From: a virus
Direction: 5' to 3' (one strand)
DNA: 10,034 bases
UHGV virus genome: UHGV-0306824
The first letter of the stretch is position 1, and every line of letters starts with the position of its first letter. Shown here one piece after another: positions 223-10,034 of this stretch. Below the pieces are notes generated by a model, which saw nothing but the letters and a program-made list of their open reading frames with translations, did not search any database and had not been told where the DNA came from. The position numbers were made by a program, and so were the translations under genes.

Positions 223-252
223 CTTATAAAACAAACAGATAAAATAAAAACA

Positions 253-1416
253 TCACTCATCATCTTCTGTTTCGTACTCCACATCAGAAAGCCTGACCTC
301 AAGCTCTAAGGACGTCGTGAAGCCGCTATTATTCAGAAAATGTGTCACCTTAGTGATTGTCCAGTCCTGCTCGTCTATGACGCGCTTAAAGCCTGACACT
401 CTGACCGGTGTTTCCGTGTAAATATCAGCACGACCAGTGGCAAGGCTGATGGAGAACTCCGCAACGCCCCGTTGCAGTTTATCCCACTTCGCCTGAGCGG
501 CGCGCATGGCCTGCGCTTTCGTGGCATATACCGTGGTCAGGGCAAAAACGTTGTCAGCTTCACCGGCCATGTATTCACCTTCGCGCGCTTCCGGTACTTT
601 TGGCGCTTTCTTCTGCGTGACTGGTTTCGCTTTCGGGTGCTCCAGTGCGCGCAGGTGTTTCTCTTTCTTTTTGCGTTTCAGTTTTACCTTCTGCTTTTGC
701 GGCTTCGGGTCTTTGGTGTGTAACCACTTTGCCGTTACGCCGGTATAGGCTCCACGGTCAGCAATCGCAAAATGATGGCGGTCGCCGTCGCTGCGGGTTA
801 TGGTGACCTGCGGGATTTTTTTACCGCTGGCCGTCACCCCCTGCCCCGCTTTGAGAAACAACAGTTTTCCCATTTTTACCGACACCTCACCGCCGTTGCG
901 TTCTGCAAGACGGGTCAGGAATTTCGCATCAGACTCCTGCGACTGGTCGATGTGCGGGATTTTAATTCCGGCCAGTGACGGAGCGACACTGGCTTCCAGC
1001 CTGTTACGGGAGGCTATCGCCTCAACAATCGCACCGAGCGTGGTGTCATGCCAGGAGCCTTCACGGCGGGAATTGAGCGTCCCGCGGAAATCTGCACTCC
1101 GGGCGCGGATGGTGACCACATCCGGCGCGCCCCGGTGTTCAACCTCATCAACGGTGAATTTCCCTTTGCATACCAGGGCAAAACCTTTCCAGCCGATATA
1201 CACCGTCAGGACAGCGCCACGAACCGGCAACCCGACCTGCCCGTCGGCATCGTTCAGTTCAATATCAAGCTGGTCAGCCTCAAAGCCCCGGTTATCCGTC
1301 AGGGTCATGCTCATCAGACGGTCGCTGATATTGCCGGTAATATCCCTGCTGTCGAGCATCAGCATGTAATCCGGCGTCAGCGTACTACCTGCATCAAATG
1401 TCAGCGCGTCCAGCAT
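253..1416 (-). CDS. D: P2 gpD-family tail protein (late control gene D)
   Basis: 387-aa ORF, last gene of the FI-FII-E-T-U-D block and the same length I recall for P2 gpD. Its ATG (1414-1416) overlaps the U stop by one nucleotide (TAATG), indicating translational coupling. It contains a Lys-rich linker at about aa 235-275. Confidence 0.88.
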   Translation of the reverse strand: MLDALTFDAGSTLTPDYMLMLDSRDITGNISDRLMSMTLTDNRGFEADQLDIELNDADGQVGLPVRGAVLTVYIGWKGFALVCKGKFTVDEVEHRGAPDVVTIRARSADFRGTLNSRREGSWHDTTLGAIVEAIASRNRLEASVAPSLAGIKIPHIDQSQESDAKFLTRLAERNGGEVSVKMGKLLFLKAGQGVTASGKKIPQVTITRSDGDRHHFAIADRGAYTGVTAKWLHTKDPKPQKQKVKLKRKKKEKHLRALEHPKAKPVTQKKAPKVPEAREGEYMAGEADNVFALTTVYATKAQAMRAAQAKWDKLQRGVAEFSISLATGRADIYTETPVRVSGFKRVIDEQDWTITKVTHFLNNSGFTTSLELEVRLSDVEYETEDDE

Positions 1417-1895
1417 TATCCCGCCCCCGTCATACCCGTGAATCTGGTCGCCATACTGCCAGCCTTACCGATGAGCGATTCCGCCTGTTTACCGATATCG
1501 CCATAAAGCGCGGCCAGTGATTCATCCACGCGGGTGAGCGACAACGTAAAATCAATTTTCCGGGGTGTGCCGTCTGCAAAGAAAATACTCCCTGTTTCAC
1601 TCACCCTGCTGATGACATACATGCCGTAAATCATGCCGGTGCCATCCAGCAACGGCCACGCCCGGCCTTCCTCTGCCATCAGCCTGAGCGTGGTCATCGT
1701 CAGCTTCCCGCCGGTCAGTTCGGGATAAAGCACGCCGGCAAGCGTCATGTTTTCCTCACCCACACCGAGAAACTGAAAGGCATCCCGTTTACCGATACGG
1801 GGATTTGACGGCCAGCGATAATCTGATTCGCGCTGCATGGTCTGGTGTGGCAGCGTCTGGCGCATAAAAACAAACATACCTAACGCGAGCATCAT
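1416..1895 (-). CDS. U: P2 gpU-family tail protein
   Basis: 159-aa ORF between T and D in the canonical P2 order; the length matches gpU as I recall it. Its stop overlaps the D start. Confidence 0.88.
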   Translation of the reverse strand: MMLALGMFVFMRQTLPHQTMQRESDYRWPSNPRIGKRDAFQFLGVGEENMTLAGVLYPELTGGKLTMTTLRLMAEEGRAWPLLDGTGMIYGMYVISRVSETGSIFFADGTPRKIDFTLSLTRVDESLAALYGDIGKQAESLIGKAGSMATRFTGMTGAG

Positions 1896-1909
1896 TTTTC
1901 GTCACCTCC

Positions 1910-4357
1910 TTAACCGTCATGCATCATGCTGGCACGGGCGCGCGCACGTTTATCCCGCTCGTATTTTTCGAGCGCATCCTGTAACTGGCGGTCGAGCTGT
2001 GTCCCCGGCGCAGTACCACCCGTCAGGCTGATGTGATATTCGTTTTTACTCTGGTCTACATAAGAGCGGCCAGCCGGTGCCGTGACCGGCTGATAAGCCT
2101 GATAACCTGCATAAGAGCTGGTCGCCGGAATATAACCACCGGTGCCATACGTGGCGGCATGAGTCCTTGCGGCGGTCTGGTCAAGTGTGTCTGACTCTTT
2201 GTTGATAACACCGAGTTTTTCCAGTACCCAGTCAATACCGCTGCGCAGTTTGTTGAACGCATTAAGCGGCAGCCTCAGCGCGTCAGCCAGTGCCTGCCCG
2301 AACATGACCCCCGTGTCACGGCAACTGTTCAGGGTGTCCTGAGTGGCTTTGACCGGGACAATCAGGTTTTTAAACCACTGCCACGCGGCCTGTAACTTTT
2401 CACCCAGCCAGTCAAACACCGGTTTCAGTGGCGTGAACAGCTCCCCCACCGGCGCAAATGCCGCTTTCAGCCCTTCAACCACACCGCCAAAGAATGCGCT
2501 GACAGGCTCCCAGTATTTACGGATAAGCAACGCCCCGGCGACAATGGCGGCCACCACAGCCACAACCGGCCAGCTAATCGCCCCGATGGCCGTCATAACG
2601 GCACTACCAACCGTCGTGAAGATTGCCCCCATTGCGCCTGCTGCCGCGATGATGGCATTGATGCCAGTGATAACCGGCCAGGCTACAAGACCAATTGCAC
2701 CGATGATGCCAATAAGCGCCAGCGCGCCACCGGCAATGATGCCAATGGTTGACGCCAGTGATTTGTTTTTCTGGATCCAGCCGTCGAGTTTTAACACATA
2801 CTTTGTGGCCGTCTGTGTGAGCTTACGCAGTGCGCCTTCCTGCTGGTCAAACAGGTCTGTCCCCACCGCCTCATAAGCGGACTGAAACTCCTTAAAGTCA
2901 CCGCCGAGGTTGTCCTGCATGATATTTACCAGCTCGGCGGTCTTCCCGTCTGAGGCTTTAAACTCAGCGGTCAGTTTGTCCAGCTTTCCGGTTGAGGCGG
3001 CAGTCATCAGCACGGCGGCGGCTGAGCTGGCCTCCTCCCCGAAAATGGTTTTCATGTATTCAGCCTGCTGGGCAGTACCGAGCCGGTTTTTCTCAAAACT
3101 GGCCTGCATTTCTTTCAGAATGGTAAATACTGGTCGGGTATTCCCCTTACTGTCTGAGGTTTTCACGCCAAGCTCTTTGAGTGCATCCCATGCTTTTCCC
3201 GTCGGTGCCTGCAGGCGACTTAACACGGCACGGCTTCCCGTCCCCGCCATTGAGCCTGTGATTTTTGCATCATGCAGCGCCCCGACCATTGCGGCGGTTT
3301 CTTCAATGCTGACACCGGCATTTTTTGCCACTGGTGCGGCATAGGTCAGCGCATCGCTCATGCCGTCAAAATCAGCGGCGGTTTTGTTCATCGTCATGGA
3401 GAGAACATCCCCGATATGAGCGACCTTATCGTTTGAAAGCTGAAAGGCGGATTTCATCCCCATCAGCAGGGCGGCGTTTTCTTCCATCGTGCGGCGGTTC
3501 GCCAGTGCCATATTCAGCGTGACCGGCGTTGCCGCCTGAATGGCATCAACATCCCCACCGGCTTTCGCAATGATAATCTGTGCACCGGCTGCATCATCTG
3601 CCGAGGCGGCGGTGTTGTCGCCGAGCTGGCGCGCCTGCTTGCGGAGCGCGGTCATTTCGGCGGAGTCTTTTGCCACTCCGAGCACGGCCTGCAATTCTGA
3701 GTTTTTCTGCGCAAACTCATAACCGGGCATCAGCAACTTAACTCCGGCCATCGTTCCCGCCGCCGCAATCCCCACACCGGCAGCGCCCACTGAGGCCATA
3801 TTTCCGGCCAGTTCCTTGCCTGCCTGATAACGCTGTTTTACTGCGTTAAGTTTTGCCTGTTGCGCACTGACACGAGCCAGCGCGTCACGCTGACGGTTAA
3901 GCTGTGCGGTGGTTTCACTGATACGGTTTTTCAGTCCCTGCTCATCATGTGCAAGATTGCGGGTATTAATTCCCACAGCGGCCAGTTCCCGCTGCTGGCG
4001 TTTAATGGAATCTGTCAGGCGGTTATATTTCGCCTGTAAGTCCTCCGCCGCACGCTTTGCGGATTCCAGCACTTTCGCCTGAGCACGGGTCGGACGTTCG
4101 GTATTTTTAAACTGTGTGGCAAGGGCTTCGGCCTCCTGCCGTGCCTTTTCAAGTGCATGACCAGTCACGGCGAGCTGTGCACTGGTCTTGCGGAATCCCT
4201 CAATACGGGATGCGTGACCGTTCAGCTCGCGCAGTGATTTTTGTGTTTCCCGGATATCCCCCGACAGCGACCTGCTCGCTGTACGGATGGATTTAAACGG
4301 GCGGGATGCCTGGTCAACAGCCCTGAGCAATACCTGTAATTTTACATTGTTACTCAT
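1910..4357 (-). CDS. T: Tail tape measure protein (P2 gpT-like)
   Basis: 815-aa ORF. The N-terminal half is coiled-coil-like and rich in A/Q/R/K/E; a long Gly/Ala/Ile-rich hydrophobic segment sits mid-protein (IGIIAGGALALIGIIGAIGLVAWPVITG...), as is typical of tape measure proteins. It lies directly downstream of E/E', and its ATG (4355-4357) overlaps the E' stop. Confidence 0.9.
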   Translation of the reverse strand: MSNNVKLQVLLRAVDQASRPFKSIRTASRSLSGDIRETQKSLRELNGHASRIEGFRKTSAQLAVTGHALEKARQEAEALATQFKNTERPTRAQAKVLESAKRAAEDLQAKYNRLTDSIKRQQRELAAVGINTRNLAHDEQGLKNRISETTAQLNRQRDALARVSAQQAKLNAVKQRYQAGKELAGNMASVGAAGVGIAAAGTMAGVKLLMPGYEFAQKNSELQAVLGVAKDSAEMTALRKQARQLGDNTAASADDAAGAQIIIAKAGGDVDAIQAATPVTLNMALANRRTMEENAALLMGMKSAFQLSNDKVAHIGDVLSMTMNKTAADFDGMSDALTYAAPVAKNAGVSIEETAAMVGALHDAKITGSMAGTGSRAVLSRLQAPTGKAWDALKELGVKTSDSKGNTRPVFTILKEMQASFEKNRLGTAQQAEYMKTIFGEEASSAAAVLMTAASTGKLDKLTAEFKASDGKTAELVNIMQDNLGGDFKEFQSAYEAVGTDLFDQQEGALRKLTQTATKYVLKLDGWIQKNKSLASTIGIIAGGALALIGIIGAIGLVAWPVITGINAIIAAAGAMGAIFTTVGSAVMTAIGAISWPVVAVVAAIVAGALLIRKYWEPVSAFFGGVVEGLKAAFAPVGELFTPLKPVFDWLGEKLQAAWQWFKNLIVPVKATQDTLNSCRDTGVMFGQALADALRLPLNAFNKLRSGIDWVLEKLGVINKESDTLDQTAARTHAATYGTGGYIPATSSYAGYQAYQPVTAPAGRSYVDQSKNEYHISLTGGTAPGTQLDRQLQDALEKYERDKRARARASMMHDG

Positions 4358-4777
4358 TCGTGTTTCCGCTTCGCCGGAGTGCCTTTTCGCGCCATGTGAT
4401 GAGTTCGGTCAGGCTCATGGGATACAGTTCTGATGGCGGCCAGTGAAATATCACTGCCACATCCGCCATCAGGTCATCGACCGAGAGATTTTTCGGAAAC
4501 GTTACTGCACCGAGTTCGGCGACAAAAAACCGACCACCTTACCGGCCAGCGCCACAAGGTCAGGCAGTTCCAGCGCGGCGACCTCCTGCTCGGTCAGCAT
4601 CGGTGCCGTCATGCGCGGCAGTACCTTAATCAGTGCATCGACTTCGGAGTTTGCAACCGCAGCCAGACTGACACCGCGCAGCGTCCCCGCACTGGGTTTC
4701 ATCAGCGTGACCTGTTCGATAACCTGCTCACCACGCTTGACCGGATTGTCCAGGGTAATCACATTTTCTTTGTTCAT
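4350..4777 (-). CDS. Tail assembly chaperone E+E' made by -1 programmed ribosomal frameshift (predicted 142 aa)
   Basis: After the minus-strand heptamer T TTT TTG, the -1 frame stays open for 57 codons (VAELGAVTFPKNLSVDDLMADVAVIFHWPPSELYPMSLTELITWREKALRRSGNTNE) and ends at TAA 4350-4352, which overlaps the T start codon. The arrangement parallels lambda G/GT and P2 E/E+E'. Confidence 0.7.
4502..4777 (-). CDS. E: Tail assembly chaperone E (P2 gpE-like), zero-frame product
   Basis: 91-aa ORF between FII and T, ending ...KVVGFLSPNSVQ*. It contains the slippery heptamer seven codons before its stop. Confidence 0.85.
   Translation of the reverse strand: MNKENVITLDNPVKRGEQVIEQVTLMKPSAGTLRGVSLAAVANSEVDALIKVLPRMTAPMLTEQEVAALELPDLVALAGKVVGFLSPNSVQ
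4523..4529 (-). other. -1 frameshift slippery heptamer T TTT TTG (plus strand reads caaaaaa)
   Basis: Read directly: the zero-frame codons are GGT TTT TTG (G-F-L of ...VVGFL). This is a classical X XXY YYZ site, placed where tail-chaperone frameshifts occur. Confidence 0.7.
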
Positions 4778-4805
4778 GGTTTTCTCACTTCTGAATCAGG
4801 GTTAA

Positions 4806-4826
4806 CCGGTCAGCCAGGCTGACCGG
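4806..4826 (-). other. Intercistronic stem-loop between FII stop and E start
   Basis: Perfect 10-bp inverted repeat CCGGTCAGCC a GGCTGACCGG, 8 nt past the FII stop (4834-4836) and about 50 nt before the E ATG. No U-tract follows on the minus strand, so it is not a canonical intrinsic terminator. Confidence 0.4.
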
Positions 4827-4833
4827 ATGAAAA

Positions 4834-5352
4834 TTACAGGCCGATATTTCGGCGGTGTTGCTCCAGCCGGTCGACGCCGTTCACCTTCTCAATCATGTTG
4901 ATGGTGTCGATTTCGACCAGCTCCTTACCGTCCATCGTCAGCCGGAAATAGGTGCAGACCACGGAGATTTTCGACTCGGTGTCTTCTCCCTGTTTACCCT
5001 CGCCGGTGTCGATTTCTTTCTGACGTCCACGCATGACCACTTCGACGGCCACCGTTTCGCCGGTATCGTCGCGCTGGTAAGAGCCTGCAAAACGAATCGG
5101 CACGGCATCCACACCGGTTGAGGCGTAAAGCTCCCAGATAACCGAATCCGGGAAGCCCCCGAGCGACCACTCCATTGACAGCGCATCGTCATCAAGGCCG
5201 AGGTCTACCGGTGCGCTGCCGTTCATCCCCGCACCGCGATAGTTTTCGAGCTTACGGGTCAGTTTTGGCAGCGTGACGGACTTTGCAACGCCCTGATAGC
5301 TGTAGCCGTTCAGAAAGACGTTCATTAACTTGAGTTTGCGCGGCATTGCCAT
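4834..5352 (-). CDS. FII: Major tail tube protein (P2 gpFII-like)
   Basis: 172-aa ORF immediately downstream of the sheath gene; the 12-nt spacer contains GGAG. Length matches P2 FII as I recall it. Confidence 0.9.
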   Translation of the reverse strand: MAMPRKLKLMNVFLNGYSYQGVAKSVTLPKLTRKLENYRGAGMNGSAPVDLGLDDDALSMEWSLGGFPDSVIWELYASTGVDAVPIRFAGSYQRDDTGETVAVEVVMRGRQKEIDTGEGKQGEDTESKISVVCTYFRLTMDGKELVEIDTINMIEKVNGVDRLEQHRRNIGL

Positions 5353-5364
5353 CGGTCAGGCTCC

Positions 5365-6555
5365 TTAATTGCTGTTAACCGAGGTGACCAGATTTGCCAG
5401 GTATTTATCGGTAATACGCTGGCGCAGGGTCAGGTTTTCGAGAGGAGGCACCGGGGTATAGTCGTAGTCGATATACAGTTTTCCGGCCTTGAGGGTTTCC
5501 GCATCGTTGGATTCTTCGCTGAACCAGCAGGTCGCATCCACGATATAGCCGTTTGTTTTCAGCTCACGGAATTTGGCATTGATGCCGTCAACGATGTCGC
5601 GAATCAGCGTTGCGGTGATGGGCTTGTCCACCGCCCACATGTGCGCCTCAGCCATCGTGTCGGCCAGCACCTGCGCGGTGCGGGTGTAGTTTTCAAAGAG
5701 GAACAGCGGGTCATCAGAGCAGGTACGGTTACCCCAGAAGCGGAAACCGTCGCGGCGAATCAGCGTAGTGACGCCTGACTCATTAAGCAGGTCAGCATCG
5801 GTGCCGGACTCCTGCAAATCCCAGAATACAGAGGCGCTGATGCCGGTAACACCGTTCACCCCGACATTGGACAGCGTTTTATGCCAGCCCTGCTCCTGGT
5901 CGATTTTGGCACGCAGCCCCAGTGCACGGGCGGTGGCATACGCGGTGGCGGTGGTACTGGTGACCGTATCCCATGCGAGGAAATCCGGCCAGATGACCAT
6001 CAGCTCACGCTGGCTGAAATTCTGGCGGTAAGCTTTCACCTCGGAAATGGTTTTACAGCCCCATGCGCTGATATACCCGAAAGCGCGCAGCTTCTGACAG
6101 ACTGATGCCAGTGCAACAGCCACCTCTTTGGTGTCCAGTCCCGGCACGCCGAGAATACGCGGTTTAACACCGGTTACCGACTCCGCCGCCAGCAGGGCTT
6201 TCAGTCCGGTGTACTGACCGTTTTCGTCGGTGGTGCCGATGATATTGGAAACGGTCTGCGCGAGTTTCGTTTCTTCGTCGTCGCCGGTGCCGTCTTCCAC
6301 GCGCACAACAACGGTGACCGGTTTTGACTGGTCAGCGATGGCCTGTAACGACGCCGCCAGCGTGCCTTTTTTACCGGCCTTTGCAATTGCGCTCTGCACA
6401 TTAGTAATCAGCACAGGTTTATTGAGGGGGAAGGTTTCCGCATCCGCATCGCTGGCCGTGCAGACCATGCCGACAATGGCAGTGGATACGGTGGAAATGA
6501 CGCGGGTGCCGTCGTTAATCTCCAGCACCTGCACGCCGTGATGATAGTCACTCAT
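5365..6555 (-). CDS. FI: Contractile tail sheath protein (P2 gpFI-like)
   Basis: 396-aa ORF, first gene of the block, with GGAG about 8 nt upstream of its ATG. Length matches P2 FI as I recall it. Confidence 0.9.
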   Translation of the reverse strand: MSDYHHGVQVLEINDGTRVISTVSTAIVGMVCTASDADAETFPLNKPVLITNVQSAIAKAGKKGTLAASLQAIADQSKPVTVVVRVEDGTGDDEETKLAQTVSNIIGTTDENGQYTGLKALLAAESVTGVKPRILGVPGLDTKEVAVALASVCQKLRAFGYISAWGCKTISEVKAYRQNFSQRELMVIWPDFLAWDTVTSTTATAYATARALGLRAKIDQEQGWHKTLSNVGVNGVTGISASVFWDLQESGTDADLLNESGVTTLIRRDGFRFWGNRTCSDDPLFLFENYTRTAQVLADTMAEAHMWAVDKPITATLIRDIVDGINAKFRELKTNGYIVDATCWFSEESNDAETLKAGKLYIDYDYTPVPPLENLTLRQRITDKYLANLVTSVNSN

Positions 6556-6663
6556 CCGTTTAACTCCGTGGTTAATGGGTGAGTGGTATTTTCAGTTGTG
6601 CCGGAGATGTCAGGCTATTTGTCCCGGTTGGCTAATCGACAGCACAACCACCGGTAAAGAAAA
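6556..6663 (-). promoter_or_regulatory. Putative late promoter and RBS region for the FI operon (expected to be Ogr-dependent)
   Basis: Only the position is supported: about 100 nt between the upstream terminator hairpin and the FI start. I searched for a perfect TGT-N12-ACA activator-site dyad and found none. Confidence 0.3.
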
Positions 6664-6682
6664 GGCGGGCAATTTGCCCGCC
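6650..6682 (-). terminator. Intrinsic terminator (minus-strand orientation) upstream of the FI promoter region
   Basis: GGCGGGCAA t TTGCCCGCC palindrome at 6664-6682. On the minus strand it is followed by TTTTCTTTA (reverse complement of 6650-6663). On the + strand there is no good T-tract. Confidence 0.5.
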
Positions 6683-6881
6683 TGTCCTGATTTGTACTCA
6701 CTCATTTTCCGACTGACAATTTACATAGCCCAAACGCTATCAAATCTGACAGTCTGCTTTGGGTAAACTGATAATGGGCAGAGCTTTGTATGGCTAACTT
6801 CAGCATGATACCTTACAGTCAAGCTGACAAAAGGCGGAATGATTATTCGTTGATACACATCCTCCTGTAAGGAAACAAAGC

Positions 6882-7652
6882 ATGTATAAAGAACTTATAG
6901 AACAGAGACTGAATGAGGCAAAAGCCGCCAGAGCTGCGCTGAGCAAGATTAATGGTGTAATTGTCGAAAAAACACACAACCCTGACCGCGGACTGTATCT
7001 CGTTAATTATGCCAATTTACTTATGAACAGGCAGATAGACATCTTCGATGATGCGCTTCTCCTCCTCGAAAACGAACGATACCAAAGCGCTTGTATTGTT
7101 AGCCGAGGAATGATTGAAACTCATGCCTTCTCACGACTCTTAAACAAGAAAGTAGAGAAAATTTTGACTACCCAAAATGGACACGCAAGTGTAGATAACG
7201 CTATCGAAGTTATATTGAACTTTACGAATAGTTCTCGATTTAAAAAGTCAGAGCAAGAAAAGATTCAGAAAGAAGTATTTGACCCGAACGACTACATGTT
7301 TACTGAGGAGGCTAAATATCGTTTTGAAAACCTACTTGCTGTCAGTATGCATGTGATGACTGCTTTACGCGAACTCTATAAAGATGAGATGAAGCAGACT
7401 AATCAGATGGAAAGTGATTTTGAACTGACTTATGACATACTTAGCGAATATGTTCATCCTTCACAAACGAGCATCTACCACTACTACACACCTGAAACCC
7501 ACTTAGTTCCTACTTCGGTTGGTAATATTCATACTTATGTGCATGCTCAGCTACAATGTGTGAGAGCGCTACTTTTCATATTAGAAGCAAAGAGTCAACA
7601 TTATTGGTCTACACAGTTAGCAAATGAGATGACCAAACGAGCTAAAGAGTAA
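6882..7652 (+). CDS. Hypothetical protein, 256 aa; cargo gene at the G-FI moron position (P2 Z/fun-type site)
   Basis: Uninterrupted ORF with AAGGA 8 nt before its ATG. It is visibly more AT-rich than the flanking tail genes, opposite in orientation to the late operon, and predicted mostly helical. No motif I can assign, apart from an R-x5-H stretch (SRGMIETH). Confidence 0.75.
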   Translation: MYKELIEQRLNEAKAARAALSKINGVIVEKTHNPDRGLYLVNYANLLMNRQIDIFDDALLLLENERYQSACIVSRGMIETHAFSRLLNKKVEKILTTQNGHASVDNAIEVILNFTNSSRFKKSEQEKIQKEVFDPNDYMFTEEAKYRFENLLAVSMHVMTALRELYKDEMKQTNQMESDFELTYDILSEYVHPSQTSIYHYYTPETHLVPTSVGNIHTYVHAQLQCVRALLFILEAKSQHYWSTQLANEMTKRAKE

Positions 7653-7767
7653 GGCCTAAGCCCTGCAATGTGTTTATTTGAAAAATATTTCAATTTTTTC
7701 TTTGTATGCTGTAAATGACCTGAGTCCCTCTGACCAGAGAGCCTTGATGTTATCAATGTCCGCTCCT

Positions 7768-7900
7768 GGCACAGAGCGGACTGTCAGATTAGGGGTTACT
7801 CTGTGTTATAGATATGTGAGCTCACACCAGAGCTTATACAGCTTATTGTGGCATTTCCGGCCATTCAGGATTTGCAGGATCCACACGACTGACCAGAACG
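7768..7900. repeat. R1 copy a: 133 bp comprising the last 19 codons of a minus-strand tfa plus 75 bp of its 3' flank
   Basis: About 92% identical by eye (roughly 10 mismatches) to 8456-8588 in the same orientation. Confidence 0.8.
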
Positions 7901-7997
7901 CTGTAGCGTTCCCATGATTCCAGTCGGCTACGCTCCTCATCTGTTGCCATGTTCAGTCTGACCGCGCGCTCCAGCGGCAAAATCACGGATTCGGCAT
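7843..7997 (-). pseudogene. Tail fibre assembly protein (P2 gpG / Tfa family), 3' remnant only
   Basis: Minus strand reads [50 protein letters not shown], a Tfa-family C-terminus. The frame runs only 57 codons back to an in-frame TGA (rc of 8017-8019) with no start. Homology to the + strand tfa copy stops abruptly at about 7997. Confidence 0.7.
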
Positions 7998-7998
7998 T

Positions 7999-8106
7999 AT
8001 TGTTCAGGATACCGGCTCAAACTCTGCCGATAGCATTGGTGGCATATATTACAGACCGGTGCAGAAATACATTAACGGGACATGGTATAACGTAGCGCAG
8101 GTATAA
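7999..8106 (+). pseudogene. Possible 3' fragment of a tail-fibre (H/Stf-like) gene, directly upstream of the + strand tfa
   Basis: Frame reads ...[36 protein letters not shown] with its stop 3 nt before the tfa ATG (TAA ttt ATG). That is the usual fibre-chaperone spacing, but the assignment rests on context only. Confidence 0.35.
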
Positions 8107-8250
8107 TTTATGCAGCATTTAAAAAATATTACGGCGGGTAATCCAAAAACGGTTGAACAATATCAATTGACAAAGAATTTTGATGTTGTCTGGTTTTTTT
8201 CAGAAGATGGTAAGAACTGGTACGAAGAACAAAAGTATTTTGCTGATGAC

Positions 8251-8367
8251 ACGATAAAAATAGCGTACGACAAAGATAATATCATCCACTATGTGGAAAA
8301 GGATGTGACAGCTATCAGACCGGATGGATTAAGTGTTGTTGAAGTGGCGGATATTACTGCTAACCGA
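8251..8367 (+). repeat. tfa-internal 117-bp direct repeat, copy 1
   Basis: 115 of 117 identical to 8586-8702; the mismatches are A/G at two positions (gacaaAgat vs gacaaGgat; catccActat vs catccGctat). Confidence 0.85.
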
Positions 8368-8455
8368 GCTGGAGCTGGTTGTGTTTAATGAAAAATTACA
8401 ATTTTAATACGTCCGCTGTACACCCTTAGCTGCCGTTAGCTTAACGTCCGCAACA
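8368..8455 (+). repeat. R2 copy 1: 88-bp element at the breakpoint inside tfa
   Basis: GCTGGAGCTGGTTGTGTTTAATGAAAAATTACAATTTTAATACGTCCGCTGTACACCCTTAGCTGCCGTTAGCTTAACGTCCGCAACA, identical to 9130-9217. Confidence 0.85.
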
Positions 8456-8588
8456 GGCACAGAGCGGACTGTCAGATTAGGCTTTACTCTGTACCATAGA
8501 TATGTAAGCTCACACCAGAGTTCATACAACTTATTGCGGCATTTCCGGCCATTCAGGATTTGCAGGATCCACACGACTGACCAGAACG
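8456..8588. repeat. R1 copy b: inverted tfa 3' end (last 18 codons, ..[18 protein letters not shown]) plus 3' flank, lying inside the + strand tfa
   Basis: About 92% identical to 7768-7900. It encodes on the minus strand exactly the C-terminal residues that the + strand tfa lacks. Confidence 0.8.
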
Positions 8589-8702
8589 ATAAAAATAGCG
8601 TACGACAAGGATAATATCATCCGCTATGTGGAAAAGGATGTGACAGCTATCAGACCGGATGGATTAAGTGTTGTTGAAGTGGCGGATATTACTGCTAACC
8701 GA
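8586..8702 (+). repeat. tfa-internal 117-bp direct repeat, copy 2
   Basis: See copy 1; it shares ACG (8586-8588) with the end of R1b. Confidence 0.85.
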
Positions 8703-9129
8703 CGGGCGGACATTTCAGGGGGCTGGATGTTTAAGGACGGAAAAGTGATTAAACGCATTTATACGGCAGAGGAATTGCAGCAGCAGGCAGAAAACCGGAA
8801 AGCCAGACTTCTTGCAGATGCTGAATCCGTGATTTTGCCGCTGGAGCGCGCGGTCAGACTGAACATGGCAACAGAGGAGGAGCGCACACGGCTGGAGGCT
8901 TGGGAACGCTACAGCGTTCTGGTCAGTCGTGTGAATTAATAGTCTTTATTAATCATAATATTTAAATAATTAGGCTGCTTTTTTAATTGAACTATAAAGA
9001 ATAAGCAACCCACTCAATAAGATACACTTTATTTATTCTGGTGCAATATTAAAAACGCATAATAAGTGTCATTTTCATTGCTCGTGAATGCCATTACTCT
9101 TAAATCGTGATCCGGTTCAAAATTTAGAG

Positions 9130-9217
9130 GCTGGAGCTGGTTGTGTTTAATGAAAAATTACAATTTTAATACGTCCGCTGTACACCCTTAGCTGCCGTTA
9201 GCTTAACGTCCGCAACA
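9130..9217 (+). repeat. R2 copy 2: 88-bp element abutting the 5' end of the DarT-like frame
   Basis: Identical to 8368-8455. Its last 11 nt supply the in-frame codons R-P-Q just before the DarT-like sequence; an in-frame TAA sits at 9204-9206. Confidence 0.85.
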
Positions 9218-9218
9218 T

Positions 9219-9545
9219 GTTTATCATTTTACATACATTGATAATCTTGAGGGAATTATAAAAAATGGATTACTTAGTACAAATTTAAAATCAAATAGAG
9301 GCATTATTCATAAAGATATAGCAAATAATGAAATACAACACCGTCGTAGTGAAATGAGGGTCACTTGTGGTCCAGGTGGAGTGGTCCATGATTATGTGCC
9401 TTTTTACTTCACTAAAAGATCTCCCATGTTACTTAATGTTATTAAGAAAAAAAACGTAGATCAAGAAGGAATTATATATCTTGCGATACCAATAGAGGCG
9501 ATAGAAGATAAATCAGTAGTTTTTTCAAATTCTTACCACATTTAA
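9219..9545 (+). pseudogene. DarT-like DNA ADP-ribosyltransferase toxin (DUF4433-like), N-terminal part; no start codon and truncated at a rearrangement junction
   Basis: Frame reads VYHFTYIDNLEGIIKNGLLSTNLKSNRGIIHKDIANNEIQHRRSEMRVTCGPGGVVHDYVPFYFTKRSPMLLNVIKKKNVDQEGIIYLAIPIEAIEDKSVVFSNS then SYHI*. The motifs YHxT..NL, GGxxHDYVPFYF and SPML match what I recall of the DarT family. There is no ATG/GTG/TTG between the upstream TAA (9204) and the conserved N-terminus; the first ATG is at 9354. Confidence 0.55.
9418..9534 (+). repeat. R3 copy a: 117-bp perfect direct repeat inside the DarT-like frame
   Basis: Identical by eye to 9685-9801 (GATCTCCCATGTTACTTAATG...TTTTTTCAAATTCTT). Confidence 0.85.
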
Positions 9546-9605
9546 ATCATGAAAGTAATGATGATCAAATGATCTAGAATCACAACGAACATCAAAATTA
9601 TTAAA

Positions 9606-9685
9606 CCCATATTTTTTCAATAGCTGTGCAACATGCGTTTTCACGCAAAGATTCCAAACAACAATAAATGAAAAATTATTGAAGG
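9606..9685. repeat. Inverted copy (reverse complement) of 9955-10034, the DarT-like 3' coding segment
   Basis: Perfect 80-bp inverted repeat; I checked 9611-9660 base by base against 9980-10029. The pairing reaches the window edge, so the repeat may extend to 9535 on this side. Confidence 0.85.
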
Positions 9686-9801
9686 ATCTCCCATGTTACT
9701 TAATGTTATTAAGAAAAAAAACGTAGATCAAGAAGGAATTATATATCTTGCGATACCAATAGAGGCGATAGAAGATAAATCAGTAGTTTTTTCAAATTCT
9801 T
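9685..9801 (+). repeat. R3 copy b
   Basis: See R3 copy a. Confidence 0.85.
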
Positions 9802-10034
9802 CTGCAAATACTTTAACGCCACCAACATTTTACTCTAATGCTGATGATTTAAATAAGCTAAATTGGGATGCAATTGACAGTAGAGTGTGGATCCCAAAGA
9901 CCGAAGGAGTAAAACAGCAAAAAATGGCAGAGTTGCTTATTCATGATGAAATTCCCTTCAATAATTTTTCATTTATTGTTGTTTGGAATCTTTGCGTGAA
10001 AACGCATGTTGCACAGCTATTGAAAAAATATGGG
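9693..10034 (+). CDS. DarT-like toxin, C-terminal portion; frame open to the window end (3' partial, lacks the N-terminal region)
   Basis: From ATG 9693: MLLNVIKKKNVDQEGIIYLAIPIEAIEDKSVVFSNSSANTLTPPTFYSNADDLNKLNWDAIDSRVWIPKTEGVKQQKMAELLIHDEIPFNNFSFIVVWNLCVKTHVAQLLKKYG, 114 codons with no stop. The ..KMAELLIHD.. helix fits the Glu-containing catalytic motif of ADP-ribosyltransferases. It is absent from the ORF track only because it runs off the edge. Confidence 0.5.
   Translation, partial: MLLNVIKKKNVDQEGIIYLAIPIEAIEDKSVVFSNSSANTLTPPTFYSNADDLNKLNWDAIDSRVWIPKTEGVKQQKMAELLIHDEIPFNNFSFIVVWNLCVKTHVAQLLKKYG
9955..10034. repeat. Right arm of the inverted repeat (coding orientation of the DarT-like gene)
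   Basis: Reverse complement of 9606-9685. Confidence 0.85.

Follow-up and report, generated by a model that had tools for sequence, protein, structure and literature searches.

A DUF5677-family gene in the G-FI cargo slot of a P2-like prophage, a candidate single-gene anti-phage function

The gene and its surroundings in the window

The window (the whole stretch of DNA analysed, 10,034 nucleotides of the virus genome UHGV-0306824) contains a P2-type tail module on the minus strand, made up of genes D (253-1416), U, T (1910-4357), E, FII and FI, and, upstream of FI and on the opposite strand to the tail genes, a gene of the DUF5677 family (Table 1). The open reading frame begins with ATG at 6882, ends with TAA at 7650-7652 and encodes 256 amino acids. 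A preliminary description made from the DNA letters had presented it as an ORF of this length on the opposite strand, with its own ribosome-binding site and lower GC, all of which is borne out by the sequence. The GC content of the gene is 0.392 against 0.56 for D to FI, and its GC3 is 0.381 against 0.685 for FI. The AGGAAA before the start codon is also kept in the Providencia, Pantoea and Pseudescherichia copies. The product has 108 homologues at E <= 1e-3, an alignment of 27 sequences (38-82 % identity) has 31 invariant columns, and dN/dS is 0.29 against the copy in an E. coli island, 0.15 against the Providencia orthologue and 0.19 against the Pantoea orthologue; the ORF is therefore a genuine gene and no chance reading frame, and it is under purifying selection. 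The protein is soluble, with a mildly acidic pI of 6.1.

Table 1 Features of the G-FI slot and its flanks, in window coordinates
Feature	Position	Strand	Basis or remark
Tail sheath gene FI, one flank of the slot	5365..6555	-	
Terminator-like hairpin and T-run	6663..6683	- (late-gene strand)	P2 backbone, just upstream of the P_F region
19-bp inverted repeat AATCTGACAGTCYGCTYTG, left (FI-side) arm	6743..6761	+	0 matches expected by chance
Best sigma-70-like promoter match, CTGACA-18-GATAAT, 10/12	6746..6775	+	Consensus scan only, no proof of function
Cargo segment, 988 bp, 39 % GC	6762..7749	.	Replaces P2 nt 15366-17445 (V-operon terminator and fun(Z))
Shine-Dalgarno-like AGGAAA	6870..6875	+	6-11 nt 5' of the ATG, read from the sequence
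DUF5677-family gene, 256 aa	6882..7652, stop codon included	+	ORF list, Pfam, dN/dS, AlphaFold2 model
38-nt AT-rich element TTTATTTGAAAAATATTTCAATTTTTTCTTTGTATGCT, just 3' of the gene	7673..7710	+	Beside DUF5677 genes only
19-bp inverted repeat AATCTGACAGTCYGCTYTG, right (G-side) arm	7772..7790	-	Overlaps hairpin 7760-7783
3' end (~51 codons) of tail-fibre assembly gene G, other flank of the slot	7843..7997	-	Collinear with L003 to 7997

Positions 223-7997 of the window are collinear with P2-like prophages of E. coli, at 98 % overall and 99.8 % over 6556-7997. Positions 1-223 are a neighbouring piece, inverted, and 7992-10034 is composed of pieces of 150-380 nt with strand flips at every junction, which return repeatedly to the same ~1.7 kb (3' end of H, G and the 5' part of DarT) and include 100 % identical direct and inverted duplicates of 88 nt, 120 nt and 80 nt. 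Most of these pieces are 100 % identical to L002, a different P2-like prophage from E. coli 30EVA1, which has DarT and a macro-domain gene in its G-FI slot. The zig-zag of 7992-10034 and the inverted piece at 1-223 are most likely artefactual (assembly or chimera) rather than the mark of a rearranged prophage. Gene G is truncated in the window by the strand flip at 7992-7997; it is intact (528 nt) in L001 and L003-L006, and four complete E. coli genomes and several drafts have the identical DUF5677 gene with FI on one side and an intact G on the other. Because the strand-flipping region is read as an artefact, the DarT fragment and the "tfa remnant", which had been named as one of the two brackets of the gene, are foreign to the biology of the locus. 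The other bracket named, a terminator on the FI side, is present as the hairpin and T-run listed in Table 1, and its P2 counterpart directly precedes the annotated P_F activator site. DarT (DNA ADP-ribosyltransferase) fragments at 9218-10034 (ORF 9354-9545) are 100 % identical to the 30EVA1 cargo. These fragments suggest that the source sample contained two P2-like prophages with different cargos.

On the 5' side of the gene, the -35 hexamer of the best promoter match falls inside the left AATCTGACAGTCYGCTYTG arm. About 60 nt upstream of the ATG move with the gene between genera, as seen by BLAST with the Providencia and Pantoea copies, and a multiple alignment gives weaker similarity over a longer 5' leader; a comparison across the differing contexts gave no conserved upstream stretch of at least 100 nt. 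The P2-slot copy is without ~24 nt of the 5' leader (6820-6835) that are retained in the island, Providencia, Pantoea and Pseudescherichia copies.

On the 3' side, the 38-nt element was found in 12 of 145 sequences, with the gene present in all 12, and it is kept in the phage-plasmid copies, where protein identity is ~70 % and synonymous sites are saturated. A terminator-like hairpin is located at or before the element in most copies, so that the element may fall outside the mRNA. Neither Rfam nor a stable conserved hairpin explains the element, and no sigma-70 promoter was convincing in it by eye or found in it by consensus scan. The 3' region 7653-7842 folds better than shuffled sequence (z = -3.2), and much of 7750-7842 is P2 backbone that also lies beside the DarT and macro-domain cargo. 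An Rfam scan of the locus gave nothing meaningful, and Tandem Repeats Finder returned 0 arrays over 6500-8000. In the P2-slot copy a 3-nt deletion damages the terminator-like hairpin after the stop codon (7653-7680; compared with L017, L013 and L015).

The G-FI slot and its cargos

Homology to the P2 backbone ends at 6761 and restarts at 7750, and the cargo segment therefore replaces exactly the V-operon terminator and fun(Z) of P2; homology to the DarT-carrying prophage also ends at 6761 and restarts at 7758. The gene had been proposed to be either Z/fun itself or a replacement, and only the replacement holds. The first possibility, that it is P2 Z/fun or a diverged copy, is in keeping with the shared slot and the shared opposite strand, but it is refuted: BLASTP against Fun(Z) (NP_046777) gave E=10 for proteins of 256 and 528 aa, Fun(Z) has no DUF5677 match, and tblastn of the ORF against 50,697 GenBank phage records, P2 among them, gave no match. 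The two genes are alike in lying in the G-FI slot on the strand opposite the late genes and in being non-essential cargo of the lysogenic-conversion type, whereas Fun(Z), which blocks T5, has no sequence similarity to the DUF5677 protein, is twice the size and has other weak domain hints.

Both arms of the inverted repeat AATCTGACAGTCYGCTYTG also flank the DarT and macro-domain gene in L002 (6703-6721 / 9792-9810) and the DUF5677 gene in the non-P2 island L017 (5829-5847 / 6894-6912), and in P2 only the FI-side arm is present, with 2 mismatches. The repeat may mark where cassettes are exchanged, or it may be a regulatory site that they share. The hairpin at 7760-7783, GTCCGCTC/GAGCGGAC, lies downstream of G, and its counterpart beside the Providencia copy (L013) reads GTCTGC/GCAGAC, a two-sided C:G to T:A change. 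As the alignment of this hairpin is marginal (z = 4.1), it hints at most at a transfer of some P2 backbone along with the cassette.

A scan of IMG/VR for the AATCTGACAGTCYGCTYTG arm returned at least 120 P2-like stretches. Among the matches listed, 25 contain both arms; three of those enclose the DUF5677 gene, and together the 25 enclose low-GC cargos of at least 14 kinds, 0.7-5.9 kb long. Ten alternative cargo proteins were scanned against PADLOC and six had a match: Shedu SduA (L123, E 4e-234), an ATPase of the AriA family (PARIS type) whose locus includes a partner gene (L079), an FRG-type PDC-S15 protein (L032, E 2e-98), a zinc-ribbon protein resembling PDC-S64 and bearing an RNNLQH motif (L030), a protein that matched PDC-S33 weakly (L070) and a protease related to defence-associated proteases. 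The remaining four, of 385 aa (L031), 346 aa (L046), 447 aa (L068) and 231 aa (L080), had no PADLOC match. Since these cargos lie between the arms and 6/10 have a PADLOC match, the G-FI slot is a genuine defence-rich exchange site. The earlier statement that it is a variable cargo site holding anti-phage systems in relatives thus holds true, with Shedu, an AriA-family ATPase and DarT with its macro-domain partner all found there, and this defence content is the main guilt-by-association argument for the DUF5677 gene. The main hotspot of P2 is the old/tin locus, the tail-gene site being secondary (PMC9122126; bioRxiv 10.64898/2026.02.27.708500). Other cargos of the slot (DarT with the macro-domain gene, Shedu SduA, the AriA-family ATPase with its partner, PDC-S15 and PDC-S64) have the same boundaries, low GC and cassette-like exchange as the DUF5677 gene, but their proteins are unrelated to it. 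Shedu, DarTG and PARIS belong to the described anti-phage systems, and the PDC models to the candidate systems of PADLOC; DUF5677 belongs to neither group.

The DUF5677 family and its predicted structure

The protein, which was at first left without a family, matches Pfam DUF5677 (PF18928) with 42.0 bits against a gathering cut-off of 27.1 (E 1.3e-10), residues 43-202 aligning to profile positions 3-159 of 166. An NCBI cluster, "DUF5677 domain-containing protein [Escherichia coli]", present on 63 contigs, is 100 % identical to it, and this uncharacterised gene is already annotated in public genomes. DUF5677 has few members: among 1.84 billion representative proteins a profile search found 65 clusters at E <= 1e-3 and 16 at E <= 1e-30, and close relatives are found throughout the Gammaproteobacteria and as far as Agrobacterium. 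The gene is rare in E. coli, being present in 8 of 5,426 complete genomes, four times in the P2 slot (~99 % DNA identity) and four times in an IS3-flanked integrase island (90 %). The protein matched 0 families of the PADLOC-DB 2.0.0 defence HMMs at E up to 10, had no usable match in PHROGs, and had no match in the PDB by sequence with the single-protein, A1 and A2 profiles.

In every setting the gene is solitary and is cargo, and it is horizontally mobile. Besides the P2 G-FI slot of E. coli, it occupies the int-att end of a P2/186-like prophage in Klebsiella aerogenes, the ends of tailed prophages beside umuDC-like genes in Providencia and Pseudescherichia, an island adjoining smpB in Pantoea, and IS-flanked sites in Pseudoxanthomonas. 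In Klebsiella, Salmonella and E. coli it is carried by phage-plasmid-like elements of ~30 kb, beside Phd/VapC or RelB/ParE, and begins ~50 nt after vapC. It is also found in a Pseudomonas island with HsdR, SIR2_2 and DUF4276/OLD-like genes, and on a metagenomic contig beside CTD7 and Lamassu-like (LmuB_C) genes.

The AlphaFold2 model, built on the 27-sequence alignment, has a pLDDT of 88 and a pTM of 0.83, with lower confidence in an insert at ~111-160. It is all-helical, as had been predicted from the sequence, apart from a beta-hairpin (208-217) that precedes the long last helix. The fold of the model is putatively HEPN-like, and its top structural neighbour is a HEPN protein, with a structural signal only marginally above that of generic bundles; Foldseek with the model gave nothing in the PDB or BFVD. 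Residues R75, Y184, E189 and H192 are invariant in 38/38 relatives (16-57 % identity; 29 match PF18928), E79 is present in 36/38, L187 and P193 are at least 90 % conserved, and R50, D53 and D56 are common among DUF5677 relatives. By model and alignment, R75-x3-E79 is located on a core helix and E189-x2-H192 at a helix end. The close clade also retains NSSR(116-119)-x-K-x3-Q125 in the flexible insert. The stretch SRGMIETH, which had been offered as a weak hint of a HEPN-like RNase, is indeed present at residues 74-81, but its R-x5-H was rejected as a family motif: position 81 is V, A, I, Y or H over the family, and H81 is therefore no motif residue.

Similarity to AbiV was seen below threshold. 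TIGR04498 (AbiV_defense) matched residues 44-79 on profile positions 3-38 of 143 with 14.1 bits against a cut-off of 27 (E 0.046), and PF18728 (HEPN_AbiV) gave no match. Among the 38 relatives, eight had a weak TIGR04498 match and one a weak PF18728 match, and P0156, a relative of ~20 % identity, matched TIGR04498 over profile positions 3-50 in the same region (E 0.0053). The 8/38 were downgraded as independent evidence because TIGR04498 matched none of ten distant members; the matches probably come mostly from the close clade. P0156 had no relatives in the word-indexed database, a search with the A2 profile was saturated on close relatives and yielded no formal link between DUF5677 and AbiV or HEPN, and hhalign of A2 against the canonical RNNLQH protein of L030 gave E 0.39, which is too weak.

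HEPN proteins are marked by an Rx4-6H conserved at the junction of helices 3 and 4 together with an acidic residue in helix 2; no Rx4-6H is conserved in DUF5677, where R75-x3-E79 and the invariant E189-x2-H192 stand instead. HEPN families deviating from Rx4-6H include AbiV and AF0298, which typically are without the canonical His and use an alternative one (PMC3710099). AbiV of Lactococcus (HEPN_AbiV, PF18728 / TIGR04498) is an rRNA-cleaving abortive-infection RNase with an RNA antitoxin, and its activity on rRNA is metal-independent. Its motif 91-RNHKSKH-97 (R91/H97) contrasts with the variable H81 of DUF5677 and with R119-x5-Q125 of the insert, which is confined to the close clade; the DUF5677 protein is acidic and not lysine-rich and has 256 aa against 201 aa for AbiV, and no RNA resembling the abiV2 RNA of AbiV was found upstream of its gene. 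The AF0298-type HEPN protein (PDB 2hsb; HEPN-T, PMC3710099) is a fold-level match alone, at 15 % identity; it has ~125 aa and is classed with the toxin-antitoxin HEPN proteins (HEPN-T), whereas the DUF5677 protein has double that length, carries large inserts and lacks a partner gene. In type III toxin-antitoxin systems of the ToxIN type a tandem-repeat RNA antitoxin lies beside the toxin gene, and no such array was found at the DUF5677 locus. The most fitting description of the gene is that of a single-gene Abi candidate of HEPN/AbiV-like type without the canonical motif.

Proposed role and alternatives

The gene is a reasonable single-gene defence candidate, because it replaces fun(Z) at a place where related phages carry known anti-phage systems, and its product is probably a HEPN/AbiV-like RNase. 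The main reading, which we hold with a probability of about one half, is that it is an intact mobile single-gene cassette in place of fun(Z), encoding a silent-until-infection anti-phage RNase of the HEPN type that would be closest to AbiV and AF0298. Expression in the lysogen is presumed, since the gene is transcribed against the late tail operons. The product would be a stand-alone effector of the HEPN superfamily, silent until infection, and would then cleave RNA, by which a competing phage would be excluded or the infection aborted. The putative catalytic residues would form a non-canonical site, with R75/E79 on one core helix and Y184/E189/H192 ending another. The sub-threshold AbiV scores, the missing canonical motif and the structural signal only marginally above generic bundles count against this reading, as does the outcome for one Bacillota DUF5677 ORF, which conferred no protection when assayed (bioRxiv 10.1101/2025.10.07.681051). 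The preliminary description had also put the gene forward as an undescribed single-gene defence; the protein is not Z/fun, as that claim required, and has no PADLOC match; it is a catalogued and publicly annotated DUF.

The Bacillota result favours a moron outside defence, acting in counter-defence against a competing element, as a regulator or as a host-fitness factor. Such a role would also accord with the partition systems and cytolethal distending toxin among the genes of P2 cargo sites (PMC9122126) and with the 4/10 alternative cargo proteins that PADLOC did not match. It is nevertheless unlikely, given the HEPN-like fold predicted for the protein, a strand and promoter of its own like those of fun(Z), and the way the gene turns up, in elements unrelated to one another, beside genes of defence and of toxin-antitoxin systems. 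About as unlikely is a non-nuclease protein of anti-phage or exclusion function, whose helical bundle would bind and block a phage or host component as a decoy or non-catalytic sensor: polar residues that are invariant or nearly so down to 16 % identity (R75, E79, Y184, E189 and H192) better suit an active or ligand site, and the closest structural neighbour belongs to HEPN.

A refinement of the main reading would make the protein an AbiV-like type III toxin, with the 38-nt element or the 3' region 7653-7842 as its RNA antitoxin or regulator. AbiV requires an adjacent non-coding RNA (bioRxiv 10.1101/2024.05.05.592566), the element is confined to DUF5677 genes and conserved despite saturated synonymous sites, and the 3' region folds better than its shuffled counterparts. 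We regard this as improbable, however, since there are neither tandem repeats nor an Rfam match, the element in most copies coincides with or follows a terminator-like hairpin, and much of 7750-7842 is backbone shared with the DarT and macro-domain cargo; upstream, BLAST homology extends over ~60 nt in the Providencia and Pantoea copies, and the phage-plasmid gene starts close behind vapC. A wider proposal, in our view quite unlikely, is that DUF5677 proteins may be unrecognised stand-alone HEPN-derived effectors that have lost Rx4-6H, have a relocated set of R75/E79 and Y184/E189/H192 and are controlled by the 3' element, much as AbiV is by its RNA partner, while AATCTGACAGTCYGCTYTG would be the recombination substrate by which cassettes are swapped among P2-like phages and exported to islands and other prophages.

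If the gene protects against phages, a DUF already in the catalogues would gain a name as a single-gene defence, and a HEPN-like effector with a non-canonical active site would join the known repertoire. If it has no phenotype, it would be an ordinary uncharacterised prophage moron. The gene is a solid candidate, if a rather ordinary one, in a slot already known to be variable, and as it is small and solitary, with a native cassette of ~1.1 kb, it is easily tested. The 19-bp inverted-repeat boundaries are a sequence handle with which every alternative cargo of the P2 site can be collected; those sampled here include several proteins that belong to no known family.

One of the alternative cargos resembles the DUF5677 protein itself. 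At the two signature stretches of DUF5677, the 231-aa protein of L080 has RSYIEN where the DUF5677 protein has RGMIET, and YSSLCSHVH where it has YDILSEYVH, and hhalign of A2 against it gave a marginal E of 0.031 over 25 columns. Its ORF adjoins a 268-aa ORF with a Walker-A-like N-terminus (KGGVGKST), and from these sequence features the 231-aa protein may be a distant DUF5677 relative with an ATPase partner.
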